This document shows positions 1 to 26,862 of a stretch of DNA of 26,862 nt, piece by piece. Source of the DNA: Neophaeotheca triangularis (taxonomy: Eukaryota). Below the pieces are notes generated by a model that did not search any database, had not been told where the DNA came from, and was given only the letters and a program-made list of their open reading frames with translations. A program made the position numbers and the translations under genes. The stretch lies in the NCBI GenBank assembly GCA_054600435.1, contig BAAIJX010000041.1:186001-212862 (forward strand). Reading direction: 5' to 3'. Position 1 is the stretch's first letter. Each line of letters begins with the position of its first letter.

Positions 1-1
1 G

Positions 2-2760: not shown

Positions 2761-2767
2761 ACTATAG

Positions 2768-3290
2768 GCCGTAGTTAACTCGTTTACTAGCTAGACACTC
2801 GTATTACCCGAAACTAGTGGTAGGGCTCGAAAGGTATAATGATATGTGAACTTGAAGACTAAAACTGTCTTACCTTTACTCTCTTTATTCGCTTATGCTA
2901 ACTATAAGCCTTACTAATATAATAGCTAGCTACGATAGACCGGACAGCTATTAGTAGGACTCGACTTATACTACCGACTCACTTTCGGTATATAGACTAA
3001 GTCGTAATTCTAACATCATAGCCTATACACATAAGCCGTAGTTAACTCGTTTACCGACTTAGCGCTCGTATTGTTAGAAACTAGTAATAGCGCTCGCAGT
3101 AGACAATGATATGTGAGTCCTATAACTACCCTACCTTTACTTACCTCATTCGTTTATGCTAACTATAAGCCTCGCTAACATGATAGCTAACCGTAGTCAA
3201 ATAGACAAGTGTTAGTAGGACCCGACTCGTACTACCGACTTATATTACGGCTCGTAGTTAACTCGTTCACCGACTCGGCACTTACTACTA
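2768..3290. repeat. Diverged direct repeat, about 2.2 copies
   Basis: The anchor gtagttaactcgtt occurs at 2771, 3038 and 3254. The first two units share aatgatatgtga, ttatgctaactataagcc and ttagtaggac.cgact...actaccgact. Confidence 0.85.
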
Positions 3291-4879: not shown

Positions 4880-5035
4880 GCTAGGTAATGATCTAGGCGA
4901 TGATCTAGGTAATGATCTAGGTAATGATCCGGGTAATGATCCGGGTAATGATCCGGGTAATGACCTACTAGTTAACTTAGTGTCGAGTATCGAGCCGAAT
5001 ACCGAATCGACTCTTGACTCGACTTTAGAGTCGAA
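4880..5035 (+). repeat. In-frame 12-bp arrays inside the helicase relic (GATCCGGGTAAT, encoding PGND; then CGAATCG/GACTCG type)
   Basis: About 7 copies of ctaggtaatgat/ccgggtaatgat, followed by gagccgaatacc gaatcgactctt gactcgacttta gagtcgaat. Confidence 0.85.
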
Positions 5036-5683
5036 TATATAACAAGATGCACCTACCGTCGACATTATTAAGACTTCGACCACTCTTCCTGCCCTATAGT
5101 CTAAGTTTCCGTTTATAAGTGTCGTTAACTAGGCGTCTACGAAACTAAAAGCGCTTAGGCTAAAGACGGAACTAACTATAGACATCACGAGCTTTAGCGA
5201 GGGCGAAGAGTTAGAGTAAAAGACGGGCGAGAACAGCGAAGGTCTTAGTAAGTGTACGAGGAAGGGCAAGACGTACTAATAGACGCTAGTCCCTTAAATG
5301 ACTACGGCTTCTAATAATGAAGGCCCCTTGCCTAGGCTACTAGGAGATAAAATGTAGGAAGGCGAGGATAAAGTCAATAATTAGTCTTTACGCGACGACG
5401 ACGAATTAGAGACTATTATAGGATCTACGGTTATCGACCCTAAGTTATAGAAGGCCGCCTACAAATTCTTCGAGTTTAATCCTATAGAAACGGATTCGAG
5501 GAGTACTATTTAGTACTATAGGTAGAATAAGGCCACTAGACTATATACATACTAGATGTATGCTGTCGCTTTTACCTTATGAAGGTTCGTCTATAGCGAG
5601 GATCTCTTGATCGTCTTATTAGGTATAGGTTTAGGGAAGACTCCTATAGGACTCGCTATACTTAACCTATTACGCCGGATCTA

Positions 5684-5755
5684 GGAGTCGGTACCCGAAT
5701 CGGTACCCGAGTCGGTACCTAAGTCAGTACACGAGTTAGTACCCGAGTTAACCCT
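5684..5755 (+). repeat. In-frame 12-bp array GAGTCGGTACCC (ESVP repeats) between helicase motifs I and Ia
   Basis: gagtcggtaccc gaatcggtaccc gagtcggtacct aagtcagtacac gagttagtaccc gagtta. Confidence 0.9.
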
Positions 5756-7854: not shown

Positions 7855-8030
7855 TTAAGTCGATTCGTTAATCGATTCATCTATAAGTCCTAAGTCGACT
7901 CCTAAGTTAACTATTGACTCGATTACTAAGTCAAGTCCTAGGTTAACTATCGATTCGCTTTCGGATTACACTATTAAGCGGGTTAATGCCGAACCTAGCC
8001 GGAGTCGAAACCCGAATCGCTTTTACGACT
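7855..8030 (+). repeat. Degenerate 12-bp array between helicase B and the transposase
   Basis: taagtcgattcg ttaatcgattca ... cctaagtcgact cctaagttaact attgactcgatt actaagtcaagt ... ggagtcgaaacccgaatcg. Confidence 0.7.
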
Positions 8031-8099
8031 TAGTACGTAGCAATATGCGCTACTTAAACCCATGAAATGAATAGCGCACTTCTTTAGCAACTAACCTCC

Positions 8100-11000
8100 T
8101 AGCTAAGTACCCTACCTAGTACCGATTAAGATAGGGAACTCGAGAACCTAAGGCACGTGTAGTCTAACCGTGAAAAGACCGGAAGGGTTAACAAGGCATA
8201 TACGAAAGTGTAGACTATAGGAAGCATAACAAGCCTAGTTTATACGTATAGTAAGACGACGTCCGAGTATAGACATATCTACTTAGGGCCTCTACTATAA
8301 AGGAGATACTAGCGACGATACTTCACGCGATTATGGCTCGTCGACGAATGCTAAGGCTACTAAAAGTAGGCATTAACAGATTGTCGAGGACGAAGAGATA
8401 GAATTATATGACATAGGCGTAGACTAGCTACTAACTAAAGAACTAAGCCATACTAGTATAGAGATGAATACCGCTCCTTATACTATAGGCCTAGCGCATA
8501 TAGGCAGTGTTATGGCGGACGACATAGCGCCTATTAGCGATCTCATAGAAGGTGAAGTAACTAGGTTCGTAGACGACTTCGAAGACGAAGTGCTTCTATA
8601 TAGCGATAACGGCTTAGGTATCTTTAATGACATATATTTTGCCATGCCTCTAACGAATAAAGACAAGGACGAGACGTTATAAACGCCCTACCCTACGGTT
8701 AATGACTAGACGATAGAGACTACGAATAGCGATAGAGATAAGGCGATAACGGTCTAAGCGTAGAGTTCGAGATCTATGAGATTAGAAAGAGGGAGACTCC
8801 GCTTATCTATATACCTAGAGAGCTATATAAAAGCGACATTTGAGAAAGAGACGGGAAAGCGCGCTAGGGTATGTAAGTACGCGTGAGTGTAACCCCTAAA
8901 CTACAGCTCTTAATGCATACTAAACAGGAACCTTTAGAAACTAAACGAGACGCCGAGCCGAGTCGTAAACCGAGTCGTAAACCGAGTCGTAAGCCGAGTC
9001 GTAATCTAAATTAGTAGACGAGGCGAATTATAAGGGTTTCGACAGTAGACTAGACTTTGCATTCGCGCATTAGCTACTATAGGAAAATATATCGGGGTAA
9101 GCAGTTAGTCGACTTTTAAGAGATCCCGCGATAGAACCTTTTTACGACTTGTTAAGTTAGAAGACTATAGCCGAACTTAGAGTAAGAATTAGGAAGATAG
9201 GGACTAAAAGGGTAGCTTCGGTAGGAGAGTAGTATAAATAAGAGCTAACTATATCAAATTCGCGGAACCCTACTAGAGAAGAGCGCTACGTCCTACGTTA
9301 TCGTAGAGTGGATAACGTCGTCAGATTCTTACTTAGTCATCTAGGCTTTAGTAGCGAGTTAATATACGAGCCGTGCCGTCTATAGACAATAGATAAACCA
9401 TGCCATCGCATCTACGCCGACATGTCTATAGGGGACTAGTAGTAGAGTATGTAGGAAGCATTAGATGTTAATAGAGCGACTATCGTCCCTCTTATTATCG
9501 CTAGCGATAAAACCTAGGTAACAAACTATGCTAGTGATCTAGCCGCTTACATAGTGTACCTTATGATTAGAAATCTCCTAGTAGCTATACGCAATTCGAA
9601 CGAGCGACCTAGAAGTGTTCTCCTAGCTATACTACCGATTATTAAAGACAGTAATGCGGACGAGAGGAGTAGGATGTTTCACGAGAGCATACGATAGATA
9701 TTCGACCCTATAAAGCGCATTATAGAGGAAGGGGGGATAATAATACTATGTAGTAATAGCTAGATAAGACATTACTTCCCTACGATTATAGTAATAGCTA
9801 TAGATTACGAGGAGCAGGTTAAGATCACGGGTATAAAAGCTAACTAACAATGCTCTATTTGTACTATATACCCTAGCGAACGGGAAGATCTCGAAGCTAC
9901 TATGCTATAGAGGACACACGAGTATACATAAGAGTAGTACCGCTGCTAGTAGACGGGAAAAGGCAAAAGAACCGACCCCGATTAGGTGTACGATATCGAC
10001 AACTTCGCGTTTAGCTATCGACATGTCGACATACATAAGGCGATAATAGTCGACATCCTATACTAGCTGCTTAAGGGAGTAATAATACACATGAAAGAGT
10101 GGATTATAGTATTAATAGTAGACAGGATGTCTAAGAAACCCTCGCAGTCGAGTAGTATTAACTAGAAGACGACTTAGGACCTAATTCGTAGGTATAGGCG
10201 ATATATAGGACTAGTATTAAAGGAAGCGGTTACGGCTATTATCGACTATCGTTTCGCCTATATACTGACATACCGCGGGATAAAGACATTCGCCTATTTA
10301 TTATCTATGAAGCAATAGACGGGTAAAGAGTAGAAGAGCATTCTACGGTAAATCCTACCTATATTTACCCTACTATTACTAGAGGTCGGAGAGTACGAAG
10401 CGGTGTATTTCCTATAGGCCGTCGTAGATTTCATACTATTAGCTATGTATAAGAGCTATAACGACGAAACTCTACAGTATATAGACTTAGCGCTATATCG
10501 TATAAACAAGTACAAGGAAGTCCTATAGAGATATCGACAACTAGGGAACGAAGACGGCTATTTCAATTTCCTGAAGTGGCATGTTATAACACATTACCTT
10601 ACTATGATTAGGCTGTATGGCAACGCGCTAGATCTCGATAGTAGACACTTCGAGCACAAGCATATTAACTTCGTTAAAGACTTGTTTAACGTAACTAACA
10701 AGTAAAAGGGTTAGGAAGACTAGATCTTCATGTATACCTTCTAGAAGCTAATAGTATAGGCTTAGTTCGACATTAGTTTGTTTATGCGACTAGAGACACA
10801 TGCAGAGAAGTAAGAAGCAAGTAGTATACCTAATCAACCTACCGCTCTAGTAGCGGTCTATAGGTTCTTTAGCTAGCTAGAGCGTAAAGGCTATATGAAG
10901 GGGGGAAATATCTAGAGGACTATAGGAGAGGTAGTAGGGCTCGTTAGTTAACTAATAGGGGAGCACCTCTACTAAGCTATCGTAGTGTTTATTCGTGAGT

Positions 11001-11770
11001 AATGACGTGAAGGAACTAGTAGTGCCGACAATCTAACTTAGGATCTAGACGCGCTACCTAGACTTATAGACTAGGTAAATAGCCTATGTGTTAAGTTCTA
11101 CAGATCGCTATAGTGCTAGAAACCTACTAGGGAGGACCCTAACGACATAGACGAGGAGTAGTAAGACATTGTCTGTTATAGTCCGAATTAGTAGGGTATA
11201 AAGGGACGAAAACGATATGACTAGATATAGGTATAAGAATACACTATAGATCCCGGGCAAGATAGTTCTACTGCATTTAAAGGGAGACTCCTAGCTTAGG
11301 TATAGTTCGTATTATCTATAGAAGATAGATACACGAGACTAGGGGAAACGTGCTAGGTCGAAGATGAAAACGGTAACCTACTAGTGTTTATAGGAGCTTT
11401 TGTTAAGCTATACCACCCTAAACACCTAATGGGTCTAGCCGACGACCTCTACGGAATGACGGTAATTAAAGTAGCACTACTAGCACTAGCGAGAGATAAG
11501 CTATAAGGCTGACGAATTTATAGCCTTACTTTAGTCTATTATGCAATCTACGTAGTTCTAGTAGACGAGAACTACGCCTATAGGGGTAATTGTTATATTA
11601 ATAACATAGCTGACTTTATGAGTTATAACATGCTGTAGAACGTAGAGTGGGAAACAAAGCAAGTAAGGGACGTAGTAATAGCGATAAGAGAGCATGAAAA
11701 ATCGAAAGCGAGGACAATAGGCGAGCGCGATAGCAAGCGTAAAAAGCGGAAGGAAAATGTCGTAGTGTAA
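8100..11770 (+). pseudogene. RIP relic of a Plavaka-family transposase (CACTA/EnSpm-related DDE transposase)
   Basis: Frame +2 from ~8930 to TAA at 11770 reads RIYADMSIGD***SM*E..ATIVPLIIASDKT*VTNYASDLAAYIVYLMIRNL, MFHESIR*IFDP, DYEEQVKITGIK..QCSIC, DILY*LLKG, KQ*TGKE*KSILR*IL, FNFLKWHVITHY..MIRLYG and FEHKHINFVK..FN.TNK. These are motifs I recognise as typical of Plavaka transposases. The N-terminal exon in frame +1 has a Zn-finger-like TCSLTVKRPEGLTRHIRKC (~8155-8211) and an acidic region. A probable intron lies at ~8873-8927 (GTAAGT...CAG). Confidence 0.9.
8953..9005 (+). repeat. In-frame 12-bp array CCGAGTCGTAAA inside the transposase
   Basis: ccgagtcgtaaa ccgagtcgtaaa ccgagtcgtaag ccgagtcgtaat. 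Confidence 0.9.
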
Positions 11771-11814
11771 AGAACAAACCTAGTAATAGAGGACGCGAAG
11801 CACGTTACGAATCA

Positions 11815-11950
11815 CCTTAGGCTTATGTGCCGACTCATAGTCCGACTTATAGGCTGACTTATATTCTGACTCATATTCCGACTTATACTCCGAATCATAC
11901 TCCGAATCATGCTCCGGCTTATAGTCCGACTTAGTACACTACTTAGGTGC
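11815..11950 (+). repeat. 12-bp tandem array CCGACTCATATT-like, just downstream of the transposase
   Basis: ccgactcatagt ccgacttatagg ctgacttatatt ctgactcatatt ccgacttatact ccgaatcatact ccgaatcatgct ccggcttatagt ccgacttagtac. Confidence 0.9.
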
Positions 11951-12355
11951 CGGTTCATTTACTAAATAAACATGAACGTTGATCTTATATTGCTTACCTC
12001 GGGCGAAACTAATCTAAACCCTCTATAGAGTAGCTCTCTTAACTAGAGCGAAAGCTATAAAGTAATATCTTATGCTCTAGCTTATACTCCGACTCATGCT
12101 CTAACTTATACTCTAGCTTAGCATAACACTTAGGTATAGGTTAGTTTGTTGATGGACATGTACGTGATCCTATAGATAAGTTGCTCTTATATTGCTTACC
12201 TCGGGCGAAACTGATCTAAACCCTCTATAGAGCAGCTCTCTTAACTAGAGCGAAAGCCATAAAGTAACATCTCATGCTCTAACTTATACTCTAACTTATG
12301 CTCCGGGTTAGTACACCACTTAGGTATAGGTAGGTTTATTAATAGATATATACGT
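11930..12355. repeat. ~202-bp direct repeat (2 copies), each containing a 12-bp sub-array
   Basis: cttatattgcttacctcgggcgaaact..tctaaaccctctatagag occurs at 11984 and 12186. Confidence 0.9.
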
Positions 12356-12374
12356 GCTTCGTGGATCGCTATAT

Positions 12375-13000
12375 GTAGCGCCTCTAAAGGTACTTCGTTA
12401 ATGGCCATTTCTAGCGTCTTAGTAGTAGAAGGAAGACGTAGTAACGTGAAGAGTGATTAGCCTTAAGTAGCTTCGTCTATAGAGTTCTCTAGCATCTCGA
12501 CTATTATATGATTCGAGGCAACTTTCACGGTGTAGGCGCTTCGTTTATAGCTATCTCTAACGCCTCTAGAGGTACTTCGTTAGTCGCTATCTCTAGCACC
12601 TCTAGAGGTGCTTCGTTAATAGCTATTTCTAGCATCTTAGTAGTAGAAGGAAGACGTAGAAACGTAAAGAGTAGTTAGTCTTAAGTAGCCTCGTCTACGG
12701 AGTTCTCTAGCATCTCGACTATTATATGATTCGAGGCAACTCTTATAGTGTAGGCGCTTCGTTAGTCGCTATCTCTAGCGCCTCTAGAGGTGCTTCGTTA
12801 ATAGCTATTTCTAGCGTCTTAGTAGTAAAAGAAAGACGTAGAAACGTGAAGAGTAGTTAGCCTTAAGTAGCTTCGTCTATAGAGTTCTCTAGCATCTCGA
12901 CTGTTATATGATTCGAGGTAGCTTTTATAGTGTAGGCGTTTCGTTTATGGCTATCTCTAACGTCTCGATAGGTGCTTCGTTAATCGCTATCTCTAGCGTG
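12375..13000. repeat. Nested tandem repeat: 3 units of 218/182 bp built with 36-bp subunits
   Basis: The anchor gattcgagg occurs at 12510, 12728 and 12910. Units differ by one 36-bp subunit (gcctctagaggtgcttcgttaatagctatttctagc). Confidence 0.9.
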
Positions 13001-13014
13001 TAGCTATAGTTTGA

Positions 13015-13160
13015 ACCGAGTAATAGACGAGGGTAGACTCACGTTCCGACTCACGTTCTAACTCACGTTTCGACTTATGTTTCGACTTACGTTCCGACTC
13101 ACATTCCGACTTACGACTAGATTTAAGTGCTAACTTATATGCCGACTCATGTTCCGGCTA
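13015..13160 (+). repeat. 12-bp tandem array CCGACTCACGTT
   Basis: agactcacgtt ccgactcacgtt ctaactcacgtt tcgacttatgtt tcgacttacgtt ccgactcacatt ccgacttacg ... ccgactcatgtt ccggct. Confidence 0.9.
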
Positions 13161-13299
13161 TTATTAGGGCCTTCTTTCTCCTCGTGTAGGAGCCTAATAA
13201 TACGCCGTGATGACTAATAAGTGTTGTAGATCGTAGAGCATACATCGATATACGTTAGTCTATAAAGGGAGATAGTGATAAGCGCTAGTATACGACGGT

Positions 13300-13575
13300 A
13301 TGCGGTAGTCTACAGTAGTCTGCGATAATCTGTAATGTTCTAACTAGCGGTATAGACATGTACTAGTCTACGCGAATATGCGATAGTCTACGTATGAATA
13401 TTGTAGTCTATATCGCGGGCTTATATGCGATAGTCTACGCTAGTCTACACGAGTCTACGCTAGTTTACATGTATATACGGCGTTCTACATAGCGATGTAG
13501 TTAGTGAACGTCTTCGCTAGTAAGCGCGAAAATGCGCTCGTAAGCCTATCTACGCCTATAAGCGTGTCTACGACT
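13300..13575 (+). repeat. Subterminal ~10-bp repeats (TAGTCTACGC-like), about 10 dispersed or tandem copies
   Basis: tagtctacag tagtctgcga ... tagtctacgc ... tagtctacgt ... tagtctacgc tagtctacac gagtctacgc tagtttacat. Confidence 0.75.
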
Positions 13576-13602
13576 ATAAGCGACGCCTTAGTTTCATAGA
13601 CG

Positions 13603-14037
13603 TACTTAGACTTAGATTTTATAGGTAATCTAGCTATATCTAGATTAATATCTAGCTTAGCCATTTTTATAAATAGTATATCTATAATCTAGAGATCTTA
13701 GAGATAGAAGGAAGTTATCCTATTAAGCACTAAGGTAGAGTATGTTATATTAATAGAAATTATAAGGGAAATTAACTAGATGTAGAATCTTTTCCTTAAA
13801 CTTTAGCCTTTAATAGAATTCAGCTTAAAGACTATTAAGGTTTATATTAATAATAAGTTAGCTATCCTACTTATAGAAGACTATACTAACTTAAAGCGGT
13901 TAAAGCATATATCCCTTAGAAATTATTACTATAGGGAATAGCTTAAGAAGGGGGTTATTAATATTAAATACATTAATACTACTAAGTAGCTAGTAGATAG
14001 TCTAACTAAGCTAAAGTCCCCTAACTAGATAATTTAA
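13603..14037 (+). pseudogene. Copia pol RNase H domain relic
   Basis: Frame +1 reads YLDLDFIGN (YSDSDFAGD before RIP)...I*RS*R*KEVILLSTKVEY...NNKLAI...KRLKHISLRNYYYRE*LKKGVINIKYINTTK*LVDSLTK, matching the Copia pattern SSTEAEY / KHI.LR.H..RE / QLADGLTK. Confidence 0.9.
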
Positions 14038-14249
14038 GATTATCCTACTCTTAGAGAGTAATATATCCTTATAGGATATAGCATTTTCCCTTTATTTCTA
14101 AACTCTAGAAAACTATCCTAGGAGAAACCTACTACACTATGTAGTATTCCCTTTATACTAACTAAGAAACCTAAGAAACCCTAGAAAACACTAAAACCCT
14201 AGGAAACCATCTCCTAAGAAATAACACCCTTATAGGACACCTTTTTTTC

Positions 14250-15580
14250 CTTTATTTTACTTTTTCTAGCTATCCTTAGAACTACCCTAGCTATCCCTAG
14301 CACTACCCTAGCTATCCCTAGCACTACCCTAGCTACTATCCTTCTTACTATCCTTCCTTACTAAGAGGCTTAAAGACGATAAAGAACTACTAGAACTAGA
14401 GGAGCCTCCTATAGAAGTTAGGAAGCCCTAAAAGGTACTTTCTCTACTAGACCTAGCTCTTATAGTAGATAGGGTAGATCTAGGACCTATTCCCCTATTA
14501 AGGGTAGACCTACTACTATAGATATCTACCCTTTACCTTAAGGCCTAAGCAAATATAGTAGCCCTAGCTAGGGTACTCTAGTCGATACTATTAGGGATTA
14601 GCACTTTAGTATATCTACTAGTTATTAGAGGAGCTATAGTAGGGGAGCTAGCTATTAACCCTATCCTTCTTAGTAAAGATACTAGAGTTTCCTATAAAGA
14701 TTTTGTCTATAGGACTAGCTAATAGGCTATCTACATATTAGTAAAGAATTCCTATAGAAATTAGTTAGTAATACTTATAAGAGAAGTCATATTAGTTAAA
14801 ATAGTTACTATAACTATAATTTCTATAGGCACCCTTTATAAACTTTTTACCCTTATGTTCTAAGGTAATATAGTTCTTCTAAGGGCCGTTACCCTTCTTA
14901 TATCTACTATAAGCTATATCCCCTTTATGAATTTTACCTCCCTTAGTAGCTTAGATTATAGTAGTAGGGAGGTAATTAGTATTCTTAGTAGATTATAGGT
15001 TAAATTTCTTACTAGCTACCCTTATCTCTAGCTTATTCTTTAGGGCTAAGGACTTATTAGAAGTATAGAACTACTAAGCCTTAGTATTACGGAATTATAG
15101 CTATATTTACTTAACGTTATCTAGTTTAAGGTTAACTACGACTTAGCGGATTCTACGTAAAGTAGCTAAGTCTAGCTAGATATAGTTAAGGACTATTTAA
15201 AGATGTTAGCGAAATTCTTATAGCTAGCCTATAGTAACTTACTTAATGTAGCTAGCTAGTTTAAGTTATATATAGCATAAGTAGAGGGAGTACTAGTTAG
15301 TAGCTTCTTACTACTACTAGAGCTACCTATACTACCTATCGTGCTTTAGTTAACGGTAGCTATACTAAAGCTACTATTAGTACTAAAGGTACTAAAGCTA
15401 AAGTGTTATTAGTTTTACTAGCTAGTATTAGTAAAGAAGCTATTAGTATAAAGGTAAAGCTATTAGTATTAAGGCAACTAGTAAAGATAAGACTAGTTAT
15501 TAGTACTTAGTAAAGATAAGAGGAGCTAGTTATAGTAGTAGGAAAAGTTAGAGAACTATAGTAGGAGGAGTAGGCCTTTT
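14250..15580 (-). pseudogene. Antisense extra ORF relic in the Copia 3' region, with a Cys-rich DUF3716-like motif
   Basis: The minus frame at ~14960-14775 reads II*ATKGGKIHKGDIAYSRYKKGNGP*KNYITLEHKGKKFIKGAYRNYSYSNYFN*YDF. Reversing TpG>TpA gives C..CKKGNGPWKNC...GAC.NC........CDF. ORF limits are approximate. Confidence 0.55.
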
Positions 15581-15761
15581 TATAGTACTATATTCTTTTA
15601 GGAGCTTTCTAAAAGTAACAGTAAAACACCTTCTACCTATTACTAGTAGCTTCTACGTAATAACGTATAGTAGTATGTAGTAGCGGCAATCGCCGCAAAA
15701 CGTAGTATTTATACATTCACTACTGAAAAGAGTAGTTACGTACGCTTGATAGCAGGGAGAG

Positions 15762-15913
15762 TGTTATAATAAGCCGTACTACGCAGCACGTGACGGATGC
15801 CTAAGGCAGAAGCTGCAGAAGCCGCAACCTGTCTTTACAGGCTTTGCTGTAAAGCACCTAGTTTAGTCCTTAGTAATCAATTAATCGAGTTCGTGCCGCT
15901 GCATATCACAACA
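15762..15913 (+). repeat. 3' LTR (152 bp) of the Copia element
   Basis: Starts TGTTATAAT (RIPed TGTTGTGAT) directly after the purine tract and ends ATCACAACA, giving a 9-bp terminal inverted repeat after de-RIP. Candidate target-site duplication CTTAT at 15914-15918. Confidence 0.85.
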
Positions 15914-16711
15914 CTTATCTCACACTTTCTTCTCAAACCCTAAAGGCTCGGATCGTCATGAGCGCTATGGTGTGCCTCAAGAAGCCTGTCGCGCTGTACT
16001 ACCGCTACCGTCAAGATAGTTCCGACAGCACATGGTGAATAAAATCCCGATCCCGCGACAGATTTGCCACACATCACGAGCTTTCATTTCAACACGCCAG
16101 AGTCCACTCGAAAGTCTTCGACCTCTCCATCCCACTGAATGCGGGCAGCCGGCAAACGTCGACCCAACCTCACAATGGATGTTAACGGCAATCGCCCTGC
16201 CGCTAATTCTCCTGAACAGAGGTTGTGATCCCATGTGTCGTCTGGATATGCTACGTCACGGAGGGATGGTAGGTGCCAACCTTGGAAATTTAAAGCGGCC
16301 GAAATAAAAGAGGCGTAACGAGCTTTGAGTCGATAGGGTAGTTTCACTGGACTGCTGTCTGTAGATTGCTCCGCTGATGGCTTGAAATGCAAAGTGAAGA
16401 AGGTGAGCGAAGCCGGTACACATATGACTTGTCCGAATCCTAGCCGTCTTCTTATATTTTAATCGTTCGCACAGCTCGCGGCAGGCACTTGCAGACCACG
16501 TGGGCAAGCGGAAGTTAGATCAAGATGCGAGGGACAGGGTCACGTAATCTGGTCGCGAGGGGCCAGAGAAGGGACGGGAAAGTAAAAGTAGCAGTTGCGA
16601 CTATGCAACCCCTATTGAGTGGAAGCTAACCAAGACAACCCAGTCCATCAACAGCACCCAGGGAGTCGTAAGTCCAAACGACTATGCTGCTATCAACTCC
16701 TGCCAACTCCC

Positions 16712-18517
16712 CTACTTTTCAACAACAATCTGGACTTCATCCATCTTCTCCGCATCGATACGCTTATCATTAGCCGTAGCAATAACCTCTTGGTCACTCC
16801 CATCAAAGGCCTTTTCCCCGAAGGCCACCGCGATCTCCTCGAGCGTGAGATGAGCAGTCTCGACATAGTAGAAATACGCCAGACCGGCAGAGAAGAGGCA
16901 AAACCCGGCGATGACAACGTAGAAGTATCCGCCAATGGAATCGAATGCGTCAGGGGAGACCATGCCGATGATACTGTACGATTTGGTCAGCAAACACGCG
17001 ACGGGAGGGATGGGAAGCAAAAGAACTTGCAAGTTAAAGCACCAGTTTGAGGCCGTCGAGATCGCCTGCCCCTTACTACGGCCTCTGAGTGGGAAGATCT
17101 CTGCCGGTATTAGCCACGGCATCGGCCCCCAGGTAAAGCCGTAGACGATGTTGAACAGCATCACAAAAGCGTACTGGCCGTTAGCTTTGGTCGTCACATT
17201 CATGCCAGCTTCGTTGAAGACGCAGACAATCGAGAGCAGTAAGGCCATCAAGGCACCGCCGAGGATCAAGAGTGGACGGCGGCCCCAATGGTCTGCGAGC
17301 CACCAGGTCGCTACGGTCGCGGCTGTGTACGGGATTGCGTTGGCTCCGGTGTAGAGGAGGGACTTGCGGTTGTCGAACCCTGCGGCGGCGAGGGTGCTTG
17401 GCAGGTAGAAGGAGATGATGTTGATGCCGTTGAGCTGGGCAAACATTTGGACGGTTATACCCACGATTGTGCGTTTGCGGTAGCGGGTGAACATTTCCTG
17501 CGAATTACTGTCAGTGGTTCCATTGGCTCGGGGGGTCGAGAAAGTACTTACACCCCAGCTCGACGAACCAAGGCTGCGCTCGTAGCGAACGGCTTCTTGA
17601 ATTTCAAGGAACTGGCGTTGCACGTGCTCTGCCTCGATGTCTCCGTTGCTGTGCAAGTCCGCTACGGTCTGCAGACTCTCTTGCATAAAGCCCTGCTTGG
17701 CCAGCCACCTCGGTGTCTCTGGTAGATAAAACGACATGACGAGCAGGAGGAAGGATAGAATGATCTGGATGATAAAAGGGCCCTGCCAGCTCATAGCGGA
17801 CGGAAGCAGAAAGTTGAAGCCGTAGTCGACCCAGCAGGAGAGCATGTATCCGGCGATGAGGAAAGTGTACTCGATGCCGACCATCAGGCCACGGGCGTGC
17901 GGCGCGGCGATCTCAGTCTGGATGATCGGCACAGTCATGGACAGGAAGCCAACGCCCACACCTTGGATCGTACGGCCTGCGACGAAAGTGTTGAAGCCCG
18001 GCGCGAACATTTGCATGAAGGCTGTGAAGAAGTAGATGAAGCCCCCGATCCGGACGCAGCGTTTGCGACCGATCGTGTCGCCCAGGCGGCCGGCCACGAG
18101 GGCTCCTACTGCGGCGGACGCTTGTAGGCAGGCGACTGAGATGCCGGTGATGGTAGGATTGACACCGTCTGTGGAGCCGTTGGCGCCGCCGCACGCGGAG
18201 AAGAATCTGGAGACGAAGACTGGATTCACCAGTAGGCCAGACATGATACCTTGATGTTGAAGTAAGTCTTGCGCCCCTCAACAGCTGACCCCTTTTGCCG
18301 ACCTACCTGAGTTGTATCCGAAGAGAGCATCGCCGAGACTGCCGAAGCCGCAGGTGGCGAAGAGTAGTGCTTTTCCCTTGATCGGATAGCGAGCGCTGAT
18401 CTTCTTGGGCGTGAGATTGCGTTGGATCCATCCGCTGGGGGGAGGTGCCCGGTTGTCGTTGGAGTAAAGCACATGGGCGTTGCGCTCGGTGGCTACGGAA
18501 GCTCGTTTTGAGGCCAT
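16712..18517 (-). CDS. MFS sugar porter family transporter (4 exons)
   Basis: ATG at 18517. Introns: 18306-18250 (GT..AAG), 17551-17498 (GT..CAG), 17030-16974 (GC..CAG). Sugar-porter motifs LFGYNSG, GDTIGRK, EIAAPHARG, PETPRWL, QLNGIN, DHWGRRP, PAEIFPLRGRSKG and VETAHLTLEEI. Confidence 0.93.
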
Positions 18518-18714
18518 TGCGAAGATTGCAGTTGCTGACGGCTGATAAGTATGCTGGTGAGGGAATGTTCCTGGAGATGTGTGGAGATATTTCCTGGAGA
18601 CTCCATGGGGAATGCGGCCCGTATATATAATCATACCCGCTTCACGGTTCTGAGGCTGCTGCGGCAATTGAAGGCTCCGGGCTACTCCCATACTCACCGG
18701 TGGCATTAGCTATA

Positions 18715-18729
18715 CGGTTCCGGCGGAAC
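18715..18729 (-). promoter_or_regulatory. Candidate Zn2Cys6 binding site GTTCCGCCGGAACCG upstream of transporter 1
   Basis: The identical 15-mer occurs at 20436-20450. This copy lies ~200 bp upstream of the ATG and ~90 bp upstream of a TATA-like run at ~18622-18630. Confidence 0.6.
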
Positions 18730-18935
18730 GTAAAGTGGCCTTGGACAGCCACAGCCCGGTACGATGATTGCCGGTAAGAAACCTTGCGGGAGGTGTGCAA
18801 TGTTCTGCGGGCTAACCTCAAAACCACCGAGGCAATTTGGCTGCATTACTATCGACGCCTTGAGACACCAGCACACCCGTAGTCATGGAACAGATGCATG
18901 CAATCGATATCGTCTCCATTGGTACAGCGAACTAC

Positions 18936-20160
18936 CTAGTTCAATGCTCCGATTATGGCATCTTTGCTATCGACTCCGGGCCCATAGATCACAGACTTCA
19001 CGCCCGACCTGTCTGCCACATTTTGAAACGCAGCTTCAGCCTCTCCGAAGCCGTATTCATGGGTTACGTATCCTCCCAGGTCCACTCGCTTCGACTTGAT
19101 CAATTTCACGGCGATGTCGTAGTCGCCAGGACCGTAGCGAAAGCTACCCTTGAATGTCGCTTCTTTGTCGCAGATGGCGCCGACAGGGAACTGGACCTCT
19201 GCTTTCCCGAGACCTGCCTGCACAAAGATGCCACCGCGCTTCAATGCGTTCACGCCGCAGCTGATGCATGGCTCTGCTCCGGTAGCATCGATGATGATGT
19301 CGAATCCAAATGGCAACCCGGCTTTCTTGGTCAGGGCTGTAGCGTTCTGCGCAGCGCTGTCTCGAGTCATCTCATAGATGTATGAGGCTCCTTTTTCCTT
19401 CGCAAACTCCAGCCTACTGAGAACGACGTCCGAAACAGCGACTGTGTCAGCTCCAAAAGCGCTGGAGACGTTTGCGCAGAGTTGTCCAACCGGACCAGCA
19501 CCGAATATCGCCACAGACTTGCCATGCATACTCCCGGCAAGCCTACAAACATGCACTGCGATGCTGAGCGGCTCTATCAACGCAGCGTCTCTCAGCAAAA
19601 GCGCTTCCGGCAGTCTGAAGACGTTCTCTCGAGGAAGGCGGTAGTACTTGGCCAGCGTACCATCGTACGGCGGAGTAGCCGCGAAGCGCATTCCGGGGCA
19701 TAGGTTGTAAGCGCCACGACGGCATTCATCGCAGCTATTGCAGGCAATCCCAGGCTCCAAGGCAACGCGGTCGCCGACTTGGAGATCTGTGGCATCGGAG
19801 CCTCTGTCGACGACGATTCCAGCCGATTCGTGTCCGAGGACTATGGGCTTGTCAACAACGTATTGTCCGATCGCACCGTGAAGCCAGTAGTGGACCTGGA
19901 CGAGGACTATCAGCAAGCCATACGGGACCGTATCAAATGGAAGCTTCACTTGCATCCGACCCGCACAGTCCAGTCGCCACGATTTGGACTACAACGTCTC
20001 TCGGAGACTGCACAGCGGGCTTCTCTCGATCCTCGTAGCTGAACGTGCGTTCTGGGCTCAGCACAAACGAAGGGTTTATCCACTTGTCTCAATTAGCCAA
20101 CCATCAATACATTGAATCTCGTACTCAGCAACATACATCAGCAAACATGGACTTTGACAT
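18936..20160 (-). CDS. Zn-dependent NAD+ polyol dehydrogenase (MDR superfamily; xylitol/sorbitol dehydrogenase-like, 3 exons)
   Basis: ATG at 20160. Introns: 20136-20083 (GT..AAG) and 19953-19896 (GC..CAG). The spliced protein has NPSFVL, TGLCGSDVHYW, LGHESAG, structural-Zn CNSCDECRRGAYNLC, FAATPPYDGTL, GAGPVG, an Asp after the Rossmann beta-2 strand (SDVV) and GSFRYGPGDY. Confidence 0.93.
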
Positions 20161-20432
20161 GGCTGAAGTTCGACTCAAATGTTTCGAGCGAGGGTACCTG
20201 GCTTGATCAATTGAGCTTTACATGATGTCCCCGGTATATAACGTCTTGAAATGCTCTTTCTGCAGCTTTCCACGGCACGCCATCGCGCAGTGCTCCATTT
20301 GAGTCGCCGAGTCTGATCAAAATGGATCCAATTTTTGAGTGACTTTGCTCACAGTATTGTCATTTCCCGCAGGTTGCAACAACAACGGCTAGTTAGGTCA
20401 AACCGTAAAGGGCTGATCGTCAAAAAGCCACA

Positions 20433-20500
20433 CCGGTTCCGCCGGAACCGGCACACGCGCAGCTGCCCGAGTTGCAAACACCTCGACTCCGCCGGAACCG
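20433..20500. promoter_or_regulatory. Two copies of TCCGCCGGAACCG in the divergent dehydrogenase/transporter 2 promoter
   Basis: CCGGTTCCGCCGGAACCGG (near-palindrome, 20433-20451) and TCCGCCGGAACCG (20488-20500). CGG triplets are typical of Zn2Cys6 sites. Confidence 0.6.
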
Positions 20501-20830
20501 AGCACTATATTGTCTTTTGTCGGCAAACTTTGACAACCTTCCAGGAACCACTGGCCTTGTGGCAATCCCGTTTGATGTCCGCTATATCCACGGTCTGACC
20601 CACGATTTCCTGCTATGTGGAGCCCCAGGCCAACGTGCCACCCCAAGACGGAGCGATGATTGCAGTGCGGGCTCGGCATGGTAGATCGTTCAAGAGTTTT
20701 GAGAGTATTAAAGGATGGCACGCTGTTCTCGACACATTGCGAAACACCGACAGTAACCACTGGTCTCTTTTTGCTTCTGCTCAACGACTCGACCCTAGTA
20801 TACACCCATTTCCGTAAGCCAAGCTGCACC

Positions 20831-22672
20831 ATGGCACAAGGCGAGCGACAGCCCTTCTTCGGTCTTAAAGGCACAGCGCTGACCGCATGGCTTACGATCG
20901 CTTGCGCGACCGACATGACCTTGTTTGGATACGATCAAGGCGTTTTCAGTAAGCTCTTTCCAGTAACAGACGACCAGCGTTGGGCAACCGCAGACACGAT
21001 GAAGCTCACAAAGATGCTTCTCCAGGCGGTGTCATCGTCTCCGACAACTTCCTTGAACTTCACGGAATCGTCGGCAACTCCACGATAATCAGTATCACGA
21101 CGGCAATCTACGACATTGGTTGTTTCCTAGGTGCCATCGTTGCTGCGGTGTACGGTGACACGCTGGGTCGAAAGAAGACCATCATCATCGGCACGACCAT
21201 CTTGGCGATCGGCGCGGCTCTTCAGACGACTTCATATTCGGTAGCTCAGATGATCGTTGGGAGAATTGTTGCTGGGATCGGCAACGGAATGAACACTTCC
21301 ACGGCGCCGGTCTGGCAAGCAGATTCGGCGAAGAGTAGCTGGCGTGGCCGATTGGTTGTAATTGAACTTGTGATGAACATTGCTGGGTTTTCTCTGGTGA
21401 ACTGGATCAGTGAGTATTGCACACGTCGCTGTGTATAGGACAAAGGACTGATCCAAATCTAAGACTATGGGATGTCTTTCGCAGGAGGCGCTACAGCCTG
21501 GAGGGTACCATTGGCCATTCAGTTCGTCTTCATCTTCGTCCTCTTTGCTACCGTCCCATGGCTACCGGAGTCTCCTCGGTAAGTGCACATGAAGTTGATG
21601 CAGCGTCTTGGACACCGACTGACGCCCGTCGTTCAGCTGGCTCATGGCCAAGGGTAGAGGTGCCGAGGCGACCCGTATCGTGGCGCTCGTCGAAGATATG
21701 CCCGAGGACGATCCAGTCACTGTGACCTTGGTGAACGACATAAAATGGGCCGTTGAGTACGAGAGAGAAAACGCACCAAAATGGCGTGAGCTACTCACCG
21801 GCAAGACGCAAGGCAAGGGCGGAACAGCAACACTTCAGCGCGCTTTCCTCGGCATTGGTCTTTTCGCGATGCAACAGTTCTCCGGCATTAACGTCACCTC
21901 GTACTACCTGCCGACGCTCCTGATCGAATCGGTCAACCTCAGCAACTCGATGTCACGACTCCTGACGGCTTGCAACTCCGTACAGTATCTGTTCTTCACC
22001 GCCCTGGCCGTCTTTTTCATTGAGAAGCTCGGGAGACGCAAGATGTTGCTCACCGGCGCGGCTGGGCAGGCCGTTTCGTTTGCTCTGATCGCGGCGTTAC
22101 TGTCCCAAAGCAGTACGGCGCGGACTCAAGCGGAAGAGGAGCGCTACGCTTCAGCATCGATTGCTTTCTTCTTCCTCTTCTTCTCCTTCTATGGATTCGG
22201 ATGGCAAGGAGTCAGCTGGCTGTTTCCTACAGAGATCAACAGCCTGGCGATGAGAGCGAAAGCGACCGGGATAGGAGTCGCTACCAACTGGATCATAAAC
22301 TTCATGGGTAAGTCGTTCAATGAAGGACCCACCACGGAACGATACTAACACTCCCCAGTCGTATTAGTCACACCGATCGGTATCGACAACATTGGCTGGC
22401 GCTTCTACATAATTTGGGCCATCTTCAACGCCGCCTTCATCCCGATTATCTACCTGCTGTACCCCGAGACGGCAAACCGTCACTTGGAAGATTTGGATCG
22501 ATACTTTGCGGAGAACAAGGGTATCATCGTGTGCTTTGATAAGGAGGCAACATCGACGAAGCGACCTGAGCGATACGAGGTGGAGCAGTCGGAGCAGGTC
22601 AAGAGAAACTACTCTGGCGCTGCTGGTGATGTGATGGAGAAGAGGAGAGAAGACTCGGTCTATGTCGACTAG
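20831..22672 (+). CDS. MFS sugar porter family transporter, STL1-like group (5 exons)
   Basis: ATG at 20831. Introns: 20949-21025, 21410-21463 (AAG acceptor), 21579-21636, 22308-22358. Motifs LFGYDQGVFSG, GDTLGRKK, GNGMNTSTAPVWQ, PESPRWL, QQFSGIN, EKLGRRK, PTEINSLAMRAK and YPETANRHLEDLD. Confidence 0.93.
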
Positions 22673-23102
22673 ACGGCCTGTATTTAGATGTGGATGTCAG
22701 AATCGTTCCGGCCTGCGAAGATCACTGCACTTTTTCGACAGTCTGCTTGATACCTAAACGATCGGCCAACGTACCGCTTCAGCGTCTGGTATCATGAACA
22801 CTTGTCATGGACACCGACGCAATAGGCACTGAAGCTTCGCACCAGGCAATGATGGTTACAGTGTCTCGGTCTTCCTCACAGATTATGTTGTTCTATAGTG
22901 TCTGCAGAGCGTAGCGGTCTTGAGTAGGCAAGGCAAGACATGCCCAAACACTCACCCTGAACGCGCAAGAAGAAGCATTGCATCGGCTACCGGAAAGAGT
23001 CCGCCCTGATCGCTTAAACAAGTACCTATATATAATTCATCCTCGACATGACTTTTGAATCAACTGCGTCGGAAAGTACTGTCAAGGTATCGATGGGCTC
23101 AG

Positions 23103-25392
23103 ATGACCATGGACGCTTCTCGACTGCCCACTCGGGTCAATAAGGCTTGCGATCGCTGCCGGCGCAACAAGTCGCGAGTAAGATTCGATACGAACAGCGT
23201 CCACGTCCGTTCTTCGCTCACGCTTCTCGCAACAGTGCGATCAATATCGGCCATGCTCGCTCTGCCGCAGGGCTGATGCGGACTGCGTGACATCGCTGGC
23301 TGATTCCGTAGAAAGGAACAACGTTAACGAGCCCCCGCCTGCGAAAAGACGCAAGCGGAGGCGATCAGCCAGCAATGGACCACCCGACGGCAATGATTCT
23401 TCTGCACAGGATAACTTGCCCCCGAGCTCGCTCCATGGCGCAACGGCTCATGGCTTCTTGACCAATGCTTTGCCAACCAAGGAGGCCGTGATGGACTTGG
23501 TGCAAGAGTACTTTGATTCTGTCCATTGGTTCTCACTGGTTGTATACGAACCGACTTTCCGCGCTTCCTTGAACAATATCTGTGAACACAGGCCCCAACG
23601 TGCGCAAAGACCATTCTTGTTATTGCTTTCGACTGTCCTTGGCCTAGCTGCCTGGTACCGAAGTCAAAAACCAGGGAATGAGCAGGGTGGAGGCTCTGTG
23701 AATTGGAAGGACTGGAGCAGCAAGCTGATTGCGAACGCACAATCGCAGATTCTCGACATCATGGATGATCGCTCCTTGACAGCTATACAGACGCTAACTC
23801 TGCTTGGCTCATTCTACGTCTATCATGGCCGCCCGAATCTGTCGTTCGCTCTTCTTGGTGCAACCGTGAGGGCTGCGCAAGCAGCTGGCATCCATAAACA
23901 CACGCCTCGGGCTTCCCCCGATGCGGTGCAGGAGAGAAGCCGGGTGTGGTGGACGATATACACCTGGGACAGGTGAGCTCAAAGCTGAACTACGCGGAAT
24001 CGCGCTAATTCTAATGCGCACTAAGGTTCGCGTCTATTACATACGGTCGCCCTCTCAGCATCAATGACGAAGACTGCAGCGCGCCGATGCCCGGTGATAT
24101 CTACGAAAACCCAGTTTTCGATCGCGACGCAACCGGTGCAGAACCTCGGCTTTGCTTCTCTAAGTACCAGAGAGAACTTAACCAGCTGTATATCATCGCA
24201 TCTCCGGCGATAGATCGTATGTTCCGAGTCAGGGAGGCCAGAACTCCGATCGGCGTACAGAACTACTTGAATCTGGTCGATGATGTTACCACCAAGATGC
24301 GACAGTGGTGGCAGCGTCTACCGGAGATCTTTTGTCGCTGCATGGACCAAGACTATTCGGCATCGCTCACGGCGGCGGAGCGAGCGTACAAGCTACAAGC
24401 GCTCTCGCTGTGCTTGACTTATGATAGCATCCTCATCATCATACTGTGCCCCTTCTGGGAGAAGCAACTCAATATCTTGCAGAACCACGCCGGCGGAGGC
24501 CTGGGGGTTGTCGGTCTGGAAGAGGAAACCAGCCGGGAGCCAACACCAAGGTCGCGCGACTCCGATTCTGTCGGACCCATGAACATGTCCAGTCGCGGAC
24601 AGTGGTGGGAAGCTGCCTCGCGCACCTGCATGTTGACCGAACTGCCGCAACTCGCCGAGCTTGCTTCTCTCAGCCATCTCTCAGCGTTCATGGCAATCAA
24701 CTTATACAACGCTGCTGTCGTCCTGGTCGTCGTGTCGTTGTCCGAGCCGTTTTCGACTCGCGCGCAGCAAGCGAAGCAGTCGATCGGCAGAGTCTACCGT
24801 CTACAGCAATCGCTTGGTGGTACAGTCAAGCTCGCTCAGAAGAGCGCGCAAGTACTGCGAAAGCTTGTCGTTCTGCTGCTCCGGCACGAAGGAGATGCCA
24901 TACTGAAGCCATCAGTCGTTCCAACGGAACGTACAACACCGCAGGTTGAACCATCGGTACCGGCGAGTCAAGTGTCTCTACGAAACGCACTCAACGTGCA
25001 CCACACTTCGGCAAACATCAGCCACGGCGAGCAAATGGGAAGCGTCCCCGGCAGCTGGGCGAACGCATACAACCTCGAAGACAGCCTCGCTTGCGTCCAG
25101 CAAGGTAAGTACGCGCACAAGCACAGCAGGTGACACGTGACTGACTTTGCACGCAGCGATCCACTCCAGCCCGCCGGATGCTTGGATCTTCGACACACCA
25201 CGAGATGTGACCTCAGCACCGACCTCGCAGCCGGGAGTTTTACAGGTCCAGGATCCTACTGTACCGCCGCACTGGGCTGACGCAAACTACTACGACGATA
25301 GCGTGTTCAGCGGCTGGGCTGGGGAGCAAGAAGATGCCGTAAATGACATGCACTGGCTTTGGGACAACGTTCCCATCGATCAAAATCTCTGA
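23103..25392 (+). CDS. Zn(II)2Cys6 transcription factor with fungal-specific middle homology region (4 exons)
   Basis: ATG at 23103 (or 23109). Introns: 23178-23235, 23973-24025 (AAG acceptor), 25105-25156. Spliced CDRCRRNKSRCDQYRPCSLCRRADADC, NLS-like PAKRRKRRR, and AQAAGIH...ERSRVWWTIYTWDRFASITYGRP. Confidence 0.92.
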
Positions 25393-25814
25393 GCTGGTAG
25401 TAGTACCAAGCGTACTTATTATACAGCTCAAGTTATACAGATAGTCAGGGGATCGTTCGGTCTCTCACCTCTCTCGTCACTTGTCCCACGACCTGCATTT
25501 ACTCCTAGTAGCCCTTTCATCAGGAGCTTGAGCTTCGAAGCAATTGATAAACACTTTCGCCGACGACAAAGTGAAGATTCTGGTGATTGCATCACTGTTC
25601 TCTTTGCCGTAAACCACACAAAAAAAAAACCACCTAGCGATCTGACCGGGTGAAGTTGCACATCGGAGCTTTCTGATCGAGCCGGGGCGCTAAATTCTGC
25701 CCCTCGAAAAAGTCAAGGCGGCACGACGGCAAAGCTTACCGCCCACCCAGCAAATTGGGAAAAAAAAAAGACGTACAAGAGAGTAAAAAGAGCAAAAGCT
25801 TAACGCCTAATTGG

Positions 25815-25949
25815 CGACGTGGGCAGGATTCGAACCTACGCCCCCGAAGGGAATTGATTTCTAGTCACTGTACAGTTGTCAGAACATGCTCGAATAGCAA
25901 GTGGAAAGGGGCTTGACCGACATCGCAGTGACCACTTTGCTACCACGCC
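25815..25949 (-). tRNA. tRNA-Ser(AGA): tRNA-Ser(AGA) interrupted by a 54-nt GT-AG insert at non-canonical position 28/29
   Basis: Exon 1 (25949-25922) GGCGTGG-TA-GCAAAGTGGTCACTGC-G-AT; exon 2 (25867-25815) TGA-CTAGAAA-TCAAT-TCCCTTCGGGGGC-GTAGG-TTCGAAT-CCTGC-CCACGTC-G. Joined they give an 81-nt cloverleaf with a long variable arm, G73 and A/B boxes. T-runs lie downstream on the minus strand. Confidence 0.92.
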
Positions 25950-26639
25950 CGACTGTGAGTAATCGATGACTTTTCGAATGACTAATTGTATAATGAACCT
26001 GTTTTTGGCAAACAGCAGCGAGACAATGATAATCGTCGCTCGACTCGACTCCTATGACCTAGCCCCAACGACTCGACTCGTTTTTCTCTCCCTCCTCTGC
26101 CCCCGGATGTACGAACGAGGGAGCAGACTACGGCTTGTCATTAGAAGTGCCGAGTTCGGTGCTACTACTCTCTACTGACCTCCGCTCTGCGAGACTCGGA
26201 GCCTTTTCACTGCGTAAATCGGGAGCAAGTCGAGACTTTGACCTCGCCTTCATCGGGAACATCTCAATATTCATTCTGCAAACGTTGTCTTCTTGGAGCT
26301 GGGCTCCGTGAGACAAACATGCTTACTTACAATTCACCTGTCTACGCGGAGCCGCATGGGTCTGCAGGCAGCTGGTAGAAGTGGTATCTTGAAACCATGG
26401 CCATTGAACGTCTCCTTTGTTGATAGCAAGCCCGACCATTGCATCGCATCGCATGGCCCGGGAGTGGTAGGTACAAATACTAGTAAGCCGCGATGTTCCG
26501 GATGCTTGTCCATCATCATTTTCACACAACCTTCCTCCTCCACCACAGAATTCGTGCCTCCCTAGCAAGAACCCCTTCGCAACAATGCCAGTCTTGCCAG
26601 TGCATGTAAGTTCTAGCAGCCATCACGCATGGCTCGACT

Positions 26640-26673
<34 letters not shown>

Positions 26674-26740
26674 AAGGGGGGGTTTTGGGTTTTTTTTTTT
26701 TTTTTTTAAAATAAAAAAAAAAAAAAAAAAAAAAAAATAA
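26640..26740. other. Homopolymer run block (poly-G, poly-T, poly-A); probable sequencing/assembly artefact or simple repeat
   Basis: About 28 G followed by long T and A runs, near the window end. Confidence 0.6.
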
Positions 26741-26862
26741 CACGACGACGAGAACGAGACAGCAACAAGGTAAAGAAAACCCACCAACGCCGGAGAACAG
26801 GAACGGGAGACTCACCGGTGGCAGCACACTTACCCCAACGCCGTTCGCACTTACCTCGAAAC

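Follow-up and report, generated by a model that had tools for sequence, protein, structure and literature searches.

A candidate spliceosomal intron in the anticodon stem of a tRNA-Ser(AGA) gene of Neophaeotheca triangularis

Introduction

Can a tRNA gene be interrupted by an intron of the kind that is found in messenger RNA, and would a gene so interrupted still work? This question is raised by a locus of Neophaeotheca triangularis, where what appears to be a tRNA-Ser(AGA) gene is split within its anticodon stem by an insert that begins with GT and ends with AG. The locus lies in a stretch of 26,862 nucleotides (assembly GCA_054600435.1, contig BAAIJX010000041.1, positions 186,001 to 212,862), all of which was analyzed and which we refer to as the window. 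The content of the window is fungal, and includes Fungal_trans, sugar transporters and a zinc-type dehydrogenase.

According to the relevant parts of two publications, the removal of tRNA introns is the work of a protein endonuclease and a ligase and never of the spliceosome (PMC13149111, PMC12530127), and the same sections of the first of these, a review from 2026, treat tRNA splicing as spliceosome-independent by definition (PMC13149111). Non-canonical tRNA introns of eukaryotes are confined, in the portion of a third source that deals with them, to nucleomorphs and Cyanidioschyzon, and all of these are short or of the bulge-helix-bulge (BHB) type (PMC4090602). Our full-text literature search, which covered few subscription journals, brought up no tRNA gene for which a spliceosomal intron is reported.

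Results

A tRNA-Ser(AGA) gene interrupted between positions 28 and 29

Reading the minus strand from 25949 to 25815, we found a class II tRNA-Ser(AGA) gene with an insert at positions 28/29 of the anticodon stem (Table 1). A permissive Rfam search of 25700-26100 matched this interval to RF00005 with 34.3 bits (gathering threshold 29, E-value 1.3e-05, model positions 1-71). In that alignment 77 nt in the place of the anticodon arm were handled as an insertion, and the cloverleaf score thus lies above the Rfam tRNA threshold even with the anticodon arm skipped. A default Rfam search of the whole window gave 0 matches, and ARAGORN called 0 tRNA genes in the unmodified window. When exactly 25921-25868 was cut out, ARAGORN called a regular tRNA-Ser(AGA); this call and the Rfam match bear out the proposal of the initial annotation that a tRNA-Ser(AGA) gene is split in its anticodon stem by an insert of 54 nt.

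In the ARAGORN cloverleaf of the joined exons, the anticodon stem has 5 bp (ATTGA/TCAAT) and the acceptor stem has 7 bp with one G-T pair. Exon 2 supplies the loop CTAGAAA, with the anticodon AGA at 25862-25860, and the 3' stem strand TCAAT; the long variable arm, the T arm and the acceptor 3' strand follow downstream of the anticodon arm. Serine tRNAs are identified by a long variable arm, discriminator G73, and T33 and A37 of the anticodon loop. The joined exons carry such features, namely a 3-bp variable stem that closes a 4-nt loop, the CTAGAAA loop and a discriminator G.

The A box was compared by eye with the consensus TRGCNNAGTGG, and Pol III is known to terminate at T runs, two of which lie downstream of the gene. 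With respect to the marks of a pseudogene, the boxes and the cloverleaf are intact, and among the differences listed for two of the comparison data sets described below (X2 and X3) no exon change was found, while the flanks do change.

Table 1. Features of the interrupted tRNA-Ser(AGA) gene and of its insert (positions are those of the window).
Feature	Positions	Strand	Description	Basis
tRNA-Ser(AGA) with insert	25815..25949	minus	135 nt; 81 nt without insert	Rfam RF00005, ARAGORN, L002
Exon 1	25922..25949	minus	acceptor 5' strand, D arm, position 26, anticodon-stem positions 27-28; 3' end ..GAT	
A box TAGCAAAGTGG	25932..25942	minus	Pol III internal promoter	read by eye
Insert, candidate spliceosomal GT-AG intron	25868..25921	minus	54 nt, between tRNA positions 28 and 29	
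Donor GTCGGT	25916..25921	minus	+3 is C (unusual), +5 is G, +6 is T	
Branch-site-like CTGAC	25878..25882	minus	A 11 nt from the 3' end of the insert	
Acceptor CAG (insert end ACAG)	25868..25870	minus		read from sequence
Exon 2	25815..25867	minus	from anticodon-stem positions 29-31 through acceptor 3' strand and discriminator G	
B box GGTTCGAATCC	25826..25836	minus	in T arm	agrees with Rfam T-arm consensus
T4 (25797-25794) and T5 (25789-25785)	25785..25797	minus	Pol III terminator-like, 18-30 nt 3' of the gene	

Uninterrupted homologues break at the borders of the insert

We scanned JGI metagenome contigs for exon 1 and exon 2 separated by an insert of 40-70 nt, and obtained 2 loci. One of these (L001) was a chance match without a tRNA. 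At the other (L002) the upstream part had been matched by chance, yet the locus carries an uninterrupted tRNA-Ser(AGA) gene that scores 60.1 bits with Rfam. This gene is identical to the joined exons at 76 of 81 positions, with 25 of 28 in exon 1 (L002 positions 1016-1043) and 51 of 53 in exon 2 (963-1015), and one acceptor pair differs in both of its bases (G6-C67 to T6-A67). When L002 was compared with the window by BLAST, the match split exactly between 25867 and 25868 and between 25921 and 25922. The flanks of L002 have no similarity to the window, and we accordingly speak of a homologue, not of an orthologue.

Further comparison data came from the contigs of four DNA runs (X1-X4) that align to 25500-26300 with at least 80% likeness. 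In X4, which is from another organism, an 85-nt contig aligns to 25823-25867 with about 82% likeness, and the alignment stops exactly at 25867. Beyond that point, read in the sense of the tRNA, the loose end of this contig supplies the 5' half of a tRNA-Ser(AGA) that is ordinary and uninterrupted and has an identical anticodon stem. Since the homologues elsewhere are uninterrupted, the insert is a lineage-specific gain in an otherwise normal gene. A search for uninterrupted tRNA-Ser(AGA) copies and for further split tRNAs in relatives had been proposed in the initial annotation. It succeeded for the former in L002 and X4, and no such copy was seen in X1, X2 or X3 at a likeness of at least about 80%. 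For the latter it came out negative, with no second intron-bearing relative among the 2 loci of the JGI metagenome scan.

Splice signals of the insert and of mRNA introns in the window

The GT and AG of the insert sit at boundaries set independently by L002 and by the X4 contig; since these uninterrupted homologues break exactly there, the ends of the insert are fixed to the base, and the GT-AG reading is not used in fixing them. Within these boundaries we could read the GT start, the CTGAC at 25882-25878 and the CAG end as originally described. The further claim that only an exact GT..AG cut works also stood, since the letters of exon and insert differ at both junctions and a cut shifted by one base is impossible. 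The donor had been called a weak match to GTRAGT, and we agree: G1, T2, G5 and T6 are kept, C is found at +3 and G at +4, and the exon side of the donor is GAT, unlike MAG. The insert contains no T run of 4 or more. We saw no other copy of it in the window, where matches were at most 9 nt long, and noticed neither direct nor inverted terminal repeats.

A strict-signal scan of the window picked out, in its gene-rich part, four candidates for mRNA introns, with lengths of 54, 58, 51 and 52 nt, all of which have the donor GTAAGT, unlike the GTCGGT of the insert. Another mRNA intron, at 16974-17030 on the minus strand, with which the initial annotation had compared the insert, is 57 nt long and of the GC-AG type with the start GCAAGT; it must start with GC, since only such a cut restores a sugar-transporter motif in frame. 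The length of the insert lies within the resulting range of 51-58 nt, as had been noted at the outset, and its branch-to-end distance of 11 nt compares with 10-14 nt in the candidate mRNA introns, which have the same branch motif. Apart from its weak donor, the candidate intron has the sequence marks of an ordinary mRNA intron.

How often such marks coincide was counted over all 53,618 54-mers of the window on both strands. GT..AG ends alone were found in 256 of these, and GT..AG ends together with CTRAY at 5-35 nt from the end were found in 40. The combination of GT, CTRAC and YAG occurred in 12 and that of GTNNGT, CTRAC and YAG in 3, the insert being one of these 3. We also folded the precursor: at minimum energy the donor is base-paired to the branch region, and the acceptor is contained in a 9-bp helix formed with the D arm, which has a 7-nt match to the acceptor region. 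As this fold is no more stable than those of shuffled sequences (z of -1.03; 28 of 200 shuffles fold equally well), we make no structural argument from it.

The insert is retained while its interior varies

X1 is the probable source run, and all 6 of its aligned records were seen. A 141-nt contig of X1 (25810-25950) spans the insert; it is connected to two long entry contigs that share 25810-25839 and to two exit contigs that share 25921-25950. Two entries and two exits mean that X1 has a second locus, with different flanks, for an identical intron-bearing gene, and the summed bin depths of X1 are fully explained by its records and one paralogue. There is no joint or loose end at 25867 in X1, and uninterrupted copies are thus absent from that run down to a likeness of about 80%. 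Gene conversion among tRNA copies may lie behind the identity of the two X1 loci; in the part of PMC4090602 that concerns it, such conversion is described as equalizing introns also.

X2 is an air metagenome from a different study, in which one 397-nt contig passes through the insert with 2 listed differences, both in the interior. X3 is a run with the same organism label (0.41 of words), in which two divergent contigs span 25844-25950, one with 9 substitutions and the other with 14 substitutions and 5 indels. Of the changes in these contigs, those listed (12 substitutions and 5 indels) are all at 25873-25909, inside the insert; the other 11 of the 23 substitutions are unplaced, and differences less than 30 letters from a contig end go unlisted. 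Among the differences listed in X2 and X3, with 11 of 23 X3 substitutions unplaced, none falls in the exons or in GTCGGT, CTGAC or TACAG. Given these unplaced substitutions, the conservation of donor and branch site in relatives is only partly shown. At the acceptor no X3 difference is listed for 25868-25872, but this comes with the limit that the last 30 letters of a contig go unlisted. The first G of the donor lies within a 30-mer that is common to all X3 copies.

The flanks of the X3 variants are heavily changed, one stretch of 182 nt having 18 substitutions and 6 gaps, and the divergence of insert and flanks is about 8-18%. The length of the insert across copies is 54, 54 and 53 nt. Breaks at 25921/25950 were seen in two contigs of X1 and in at least four of X3, so that the exon 1 stretch is common to all copies. 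From these contig breaks and from three records of at least 99% identity we infer that, in every X3 copy, exon 1 and exon 2 both match the window exactly. Furthermore, joints that skip the insert were found in none of the four runs X1-X4. Taken together, these comparisons suggest that the exons are under selection and that the interior of an insert of constant length drifts freely, and this pattern of change in exons and insert suggests a working intron-bearing gene rather than a dead copy.

Discussion

A probable working gene with a candidate spliceosomal intron

We consider it fairly probable, from the sequence features and comparisons given above, that this locus is a working nuclear tRNA-Ser(AGA) gene with a U2-type spliceosomal intron, which would be a single case. 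The weak donor counts against this reading, as do the minimum-energy fold and the 11 unplaced X3 substitutions, any of which may fall in GTCGGT or CTGAC. Transcription by Pol III would be driven by the intact A and B boxes, pass through the 54-nt intron and stop at T4 or T5. The spliceosome would then use GTCGGT, CTGAC and CAG, so that a lariat would be released and ..GAT would be joined to TGA.., and the joined RNA would fold into a normal class II cloverleaf before the usual end trimming and modification. The uninterrupted homologues show that the putative intron was gained in the present lineage, and the contig data from three data sets, within their limits, show it in all detectable copies of the gene.

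In fungi, TCT and TCC codons need the anticodon AGA, which is read as IGA (with inosine). Counted over five long ORFs of the window, serine is encoded 137 times, 42 of them by these two codons, so that a tRNA with this anticodon is required. Whether the only tRNA-Ser(AGA) genes are those with the putative spliceosomal intron, such that their precursor would have to pass through the spliceosome before use, we regard as an evenly balanced question.

Other explanations of the locus

The explanation that competes most seriously is an inactive copy, in which a transposed or reverse-spliced mRNA intron would have killed the gene and would never be removed, with serine served by other tRNAs. We regard this as unlikely, while granting it real weight. 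Eukaryotic tRNA genes with non-canonical inserts are usually called pseudogenes, at least in the sections of PMC4090602 that discuss them, the donor GTCGGT is weak, and other Ser(AGA) genes of less than about 80% likeness would escape the comparison. On the other side, the X4 gene was detected at about 82% likeness, whereas X1-X3 gave no uninterrupted copy. The insert is kept, at 54, 54 and 53 nt, by at least two X1 loci and by two or three X3 variants. An inactive copy also fits poorly with promoter boxes, terminator and cloverleaf that are all intact, and with exons that have no listed change next to an insert and flanks that have diverged to the extent seen in X3. A non-coding RNA, an extended UTR or some other longer transcript made by Pol II might instead serve as host, with the intron spliced there and the tRNA released later, or with the spliced host itself being functional. 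Spliceosomes normally work on Pol II transcripts, and the locus is intergenic, about 420 nt past the end of a convergent transcription-factor gene. We nevertheless hold such a host to be highly improbable, as the minus strand upstream of the tRNA has no ORF or gene that hints at one, and the intact Pol III boxes and terminator would suffice alone.

Removal by something other than the spliceosome, either tRNA endonuclease and ligase or another nuclease-ligase pair, would make GT..CTGAC..AG a coincidence or a relic, and we judge it very unlikely. The three splice signals would be expected jointly by chance at a rate of about 1e-4 or less. Precedent exists in a BHB-reading endonuclease that, by the account in part of PMC4090602, cuts non-canonical tRNA introns in Cyanidioschyzon merolae and in nucleomorphs, and a relaxed search of our precursor does give a symmetric structure in which a 4-bp helix lies between two 4-nt bulges and both cuts fall at bulge-helix borders. 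A strict BHB (3-nt bulges, a 4-bp helix and cuts after the second bulge nucleotide) fails, however, in both geometries tried: the central helix is incompletely paired and the outer helices are paired at 2 of 6 and 1 of 6 positions. We enumerated 1176 relaxed configurations, and the best-supported of these, with outer helices paired, all place the cuts 5' of the central helix strands. This is the reverse of real substrates, the cut geometry of which was reportedly set out by Marck and Grosjean in 2003. Fungi use a ruler mechanism that cuts tRNA introns at 37/38, whereas the insert is at 28/29; since it is not at 37/38 and lacks a bulge-helix-bulge, tRNA endonuclease is unlikely. Loops of the IRE1 type, which have the cleavage motif CNG/CNGN, are absent at both junctions.

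A self-splicing intron of group I or II was rejected, with 54 nt against a catalytic core of more than 200 nt and no intron family in the permissive Rfam search of 25700-26100. The initial statement that there is no intron at 37/38 calls for one correction. L002 contradicts a parse as tRNA-Leu, while ARAGORN, with introns allowed, offers exactly this: an intron of 43 nt, of the ordinary kind, would occupy 37/38 of a tRNA-Leu(caa) at c[25812,25949]. Genes for tRNA-Leu(CAA) often have a canonical intron, as the pertinent portion of PMC12530127 notes. This parse needs an anticodon stem of 4 bp with a T.T mismatch and a G-T pair, leaves a variable region of about 24 nt largely unpaired and has a discriminator G. 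L002 is co-linear with the Ser(AGA) parse at 76 of 81 positions, which leaves the leucine parse no room, and the X4 contig fits the serine parse as well. We rejected the latter as extremely unlikely in view of its poor stem, its unpaired variable region and its conflict with the co-linear L002, and the absence of an intron at 37/38 is in our opinion a well-founded judgement.

Comparison with known systems

The U6 snRNA gene of Schizosaccharomyces pombe reportedly contains an mRNA-type intron, as described by Tani and Ohshima in 1989. As with the candidate tRNA, this is a short Pol III transcript with a GT-AG intron of about 50 nt and exons of tens of nucleotides. The precursor of U6 is made by Pol III and spliced by the spliceosome, and its intron has been proposed to stem from reverse splicing and subsequent reverse transcription, both according to parts of PMC5855946. 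U6 takes part in the spliceosome's active site, which explains reverse splicing into U6, whereas a tRNA has no such link. Moreover, removal of the U6 intron has been demonstrated by experiment, whereas that of the tRNA-Ser(AGA) intron is proposed here.

[quoted passage not shown] Here, as at our locus, GT-AG introns are carried by fungal structural-RNA genes, including rRNA genes that are not transcribed by Pol II; none of these cases is a tRNA, and the list in that part of PMC5855946 is one without tRNA.

Among tRNA genes proper, Cyanidioschyzon merolae and the nucleomorphs of cryptophytes and chlorarachniophytes have introns outside 37/38, including some in the anticodon stem, and their excision has been confirmed by RT-PCR, as reported in sections of two papers (PMC4090602, PMC3728597). 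These introns, as far as the same sections describe them, are 3 to about 24 nt long or have BHB motifs that are read by the tRNA endonuclease. The insert in tRNA-Ser(AGA) differs from them in its 54 nt, in having no strict BHB and in the presence of donor, branch and acceptor motifs. With canonical 37/38 introns it shares a nuclear tRNA and the need for removal before the anticodon arm can form, a need set out in part of PMC13149111. It differs from these in its position at 28/29 and in having sequence motifs instead of the geometry of the tRNA body.

Implications

If the tRNA-Ser(AGA) gene is indeed matured by the spliceosome, the rule that tRNA splicing is spliceosome-free would be broken by a working tRNA gene, and a fourth route of tRNA-intron removal would stand beside endonuclease, group I and group II. 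The spliceosome would then handle a highly structured and uncapped Pol III transcript besides U6, and translation would depend directly on splicing of the mRNA type. The locus would also offer a natural and recent intron gain in a structured RNA that is unconnected with the spliceosome's active site; this gain would be datable, since close relatives are uninterrupted.

A spliceosomal intron would in addition account for tRNA finders missing such genes, as ARAGORN and the default Rfam search did here. Apparent gaps in fungal tRNA sets may conceal further cases, and annotation pipelines would need a split-aware tRNA search if the present reading is true.

One further contig of X1 (contig 4) carries a sister gene, which apparently has an ordinary short intron adjoining a CGA anticodon. 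Ordinary tRNA introns and introns of the putative spliceosomal type may thus coexist in one genome.

Sequence features of the insert-bearing tRNA-Ser(AGA) gene and a related locus

We found that the D arm of the tRNA-Ser(AGA) gene (GTCACTG) is perfectly complementary, over 7 nt, to the acceptor region of its insert, the candidate spliceosomal intron, and that this complementarity straddles the 3' splice site (CAG/TGAC, slash at the splice site). At the D-arm position, alignment with the uninterrupted homologue on metagenome contig L002 shows GTTAATG, so the match in the intron-bearing lineage arises through two D-loop changes. By a rough estimate, the chance of such a match is about 0.01.

The tRNA gene is directly followed by CCA, which is normally not encoded in eukaryotic tRNA genes. 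Its presence may reflect chance (1 in 64) or be left over from a retro-copied mature tRNA. The first five trailer letters are common to this gene and the second locus in X1, the DNA run that is the probable source of the window. We also found in X1 a contig from outside the window (contig 4) that aligns to window positions 25814-25862 with 5 differences in 49 nt, the tRNA's 3' half being in common. Upstream of the aligned part, in the tRNA sense, its sequence resembles the end of a D arm, then one strand of a stem (5 nt), then a loop whose anticodon is CGA. About 16 nt that lack the GT-AG pattern come next, and a T7 run lies 3' of the gene. As read from this contig, the sister gene probably encodes tRNA-Ser(CGA) and is interrupted by an ordinary intron at 37/38.

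In X3, a DNA run under the same organism label as the window, contigs 12-18 revealed two sequence versions over the whole 800-nt stretch (25500-26300), about 2-3% and about 7-18% divergent from the window and similar in depth. The sample therefore comprises two diverged genomes sharing one organism label, as a mixture, hybrid or heterokaryon.

Genomic neighbourhood

Window composition breaks sharply: GC content is 34-46% in 1-16000, where long ORFs are nearly absent, and 51-57% in the gene-rich 16001-26862. The former looks like the AT-rich, repeat-degraded blocks adjoining gene islands that are found in many filamentous ascomycetes. The sugar transporters (Sugar_tr, E 1.3e-83 and 3.9e-41), the dehydrogenase between them and the Fungal_trans gene may form a small sugar-utilisation cluster.

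Features of the window
Feature	Position	Strand	Remark
Sugar transporter, zinc-type alcohol dehydrogenase, sugar transporter	16084-22400
mRNA intron in sugar-transporter gene	16974-17030	minus	57 nt, donor GCAAGT
Fungal_trans transcription-factor gene	23182-25392		after the transporter/dehydrogenase genes
CCA directly 3' of tRNA-Ser(AGA)	25812-25814	minus	sequence reading
7-nt complementarity, acceptor-region side	25864-25870	minus
7-nt complementarity, D-arm side	25926-25932	minus

The mRNA intron with which the initial annotation had compared the insert is the one in the sugar-transporter gene. Judged from its reading frame, this intron must be of the GC-AG type, because only a cut at the tabulated donor preserves the frame and restores the conserved SNWCFNF/IIGMVSP. 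A long ORF traverses it uninterrupted.
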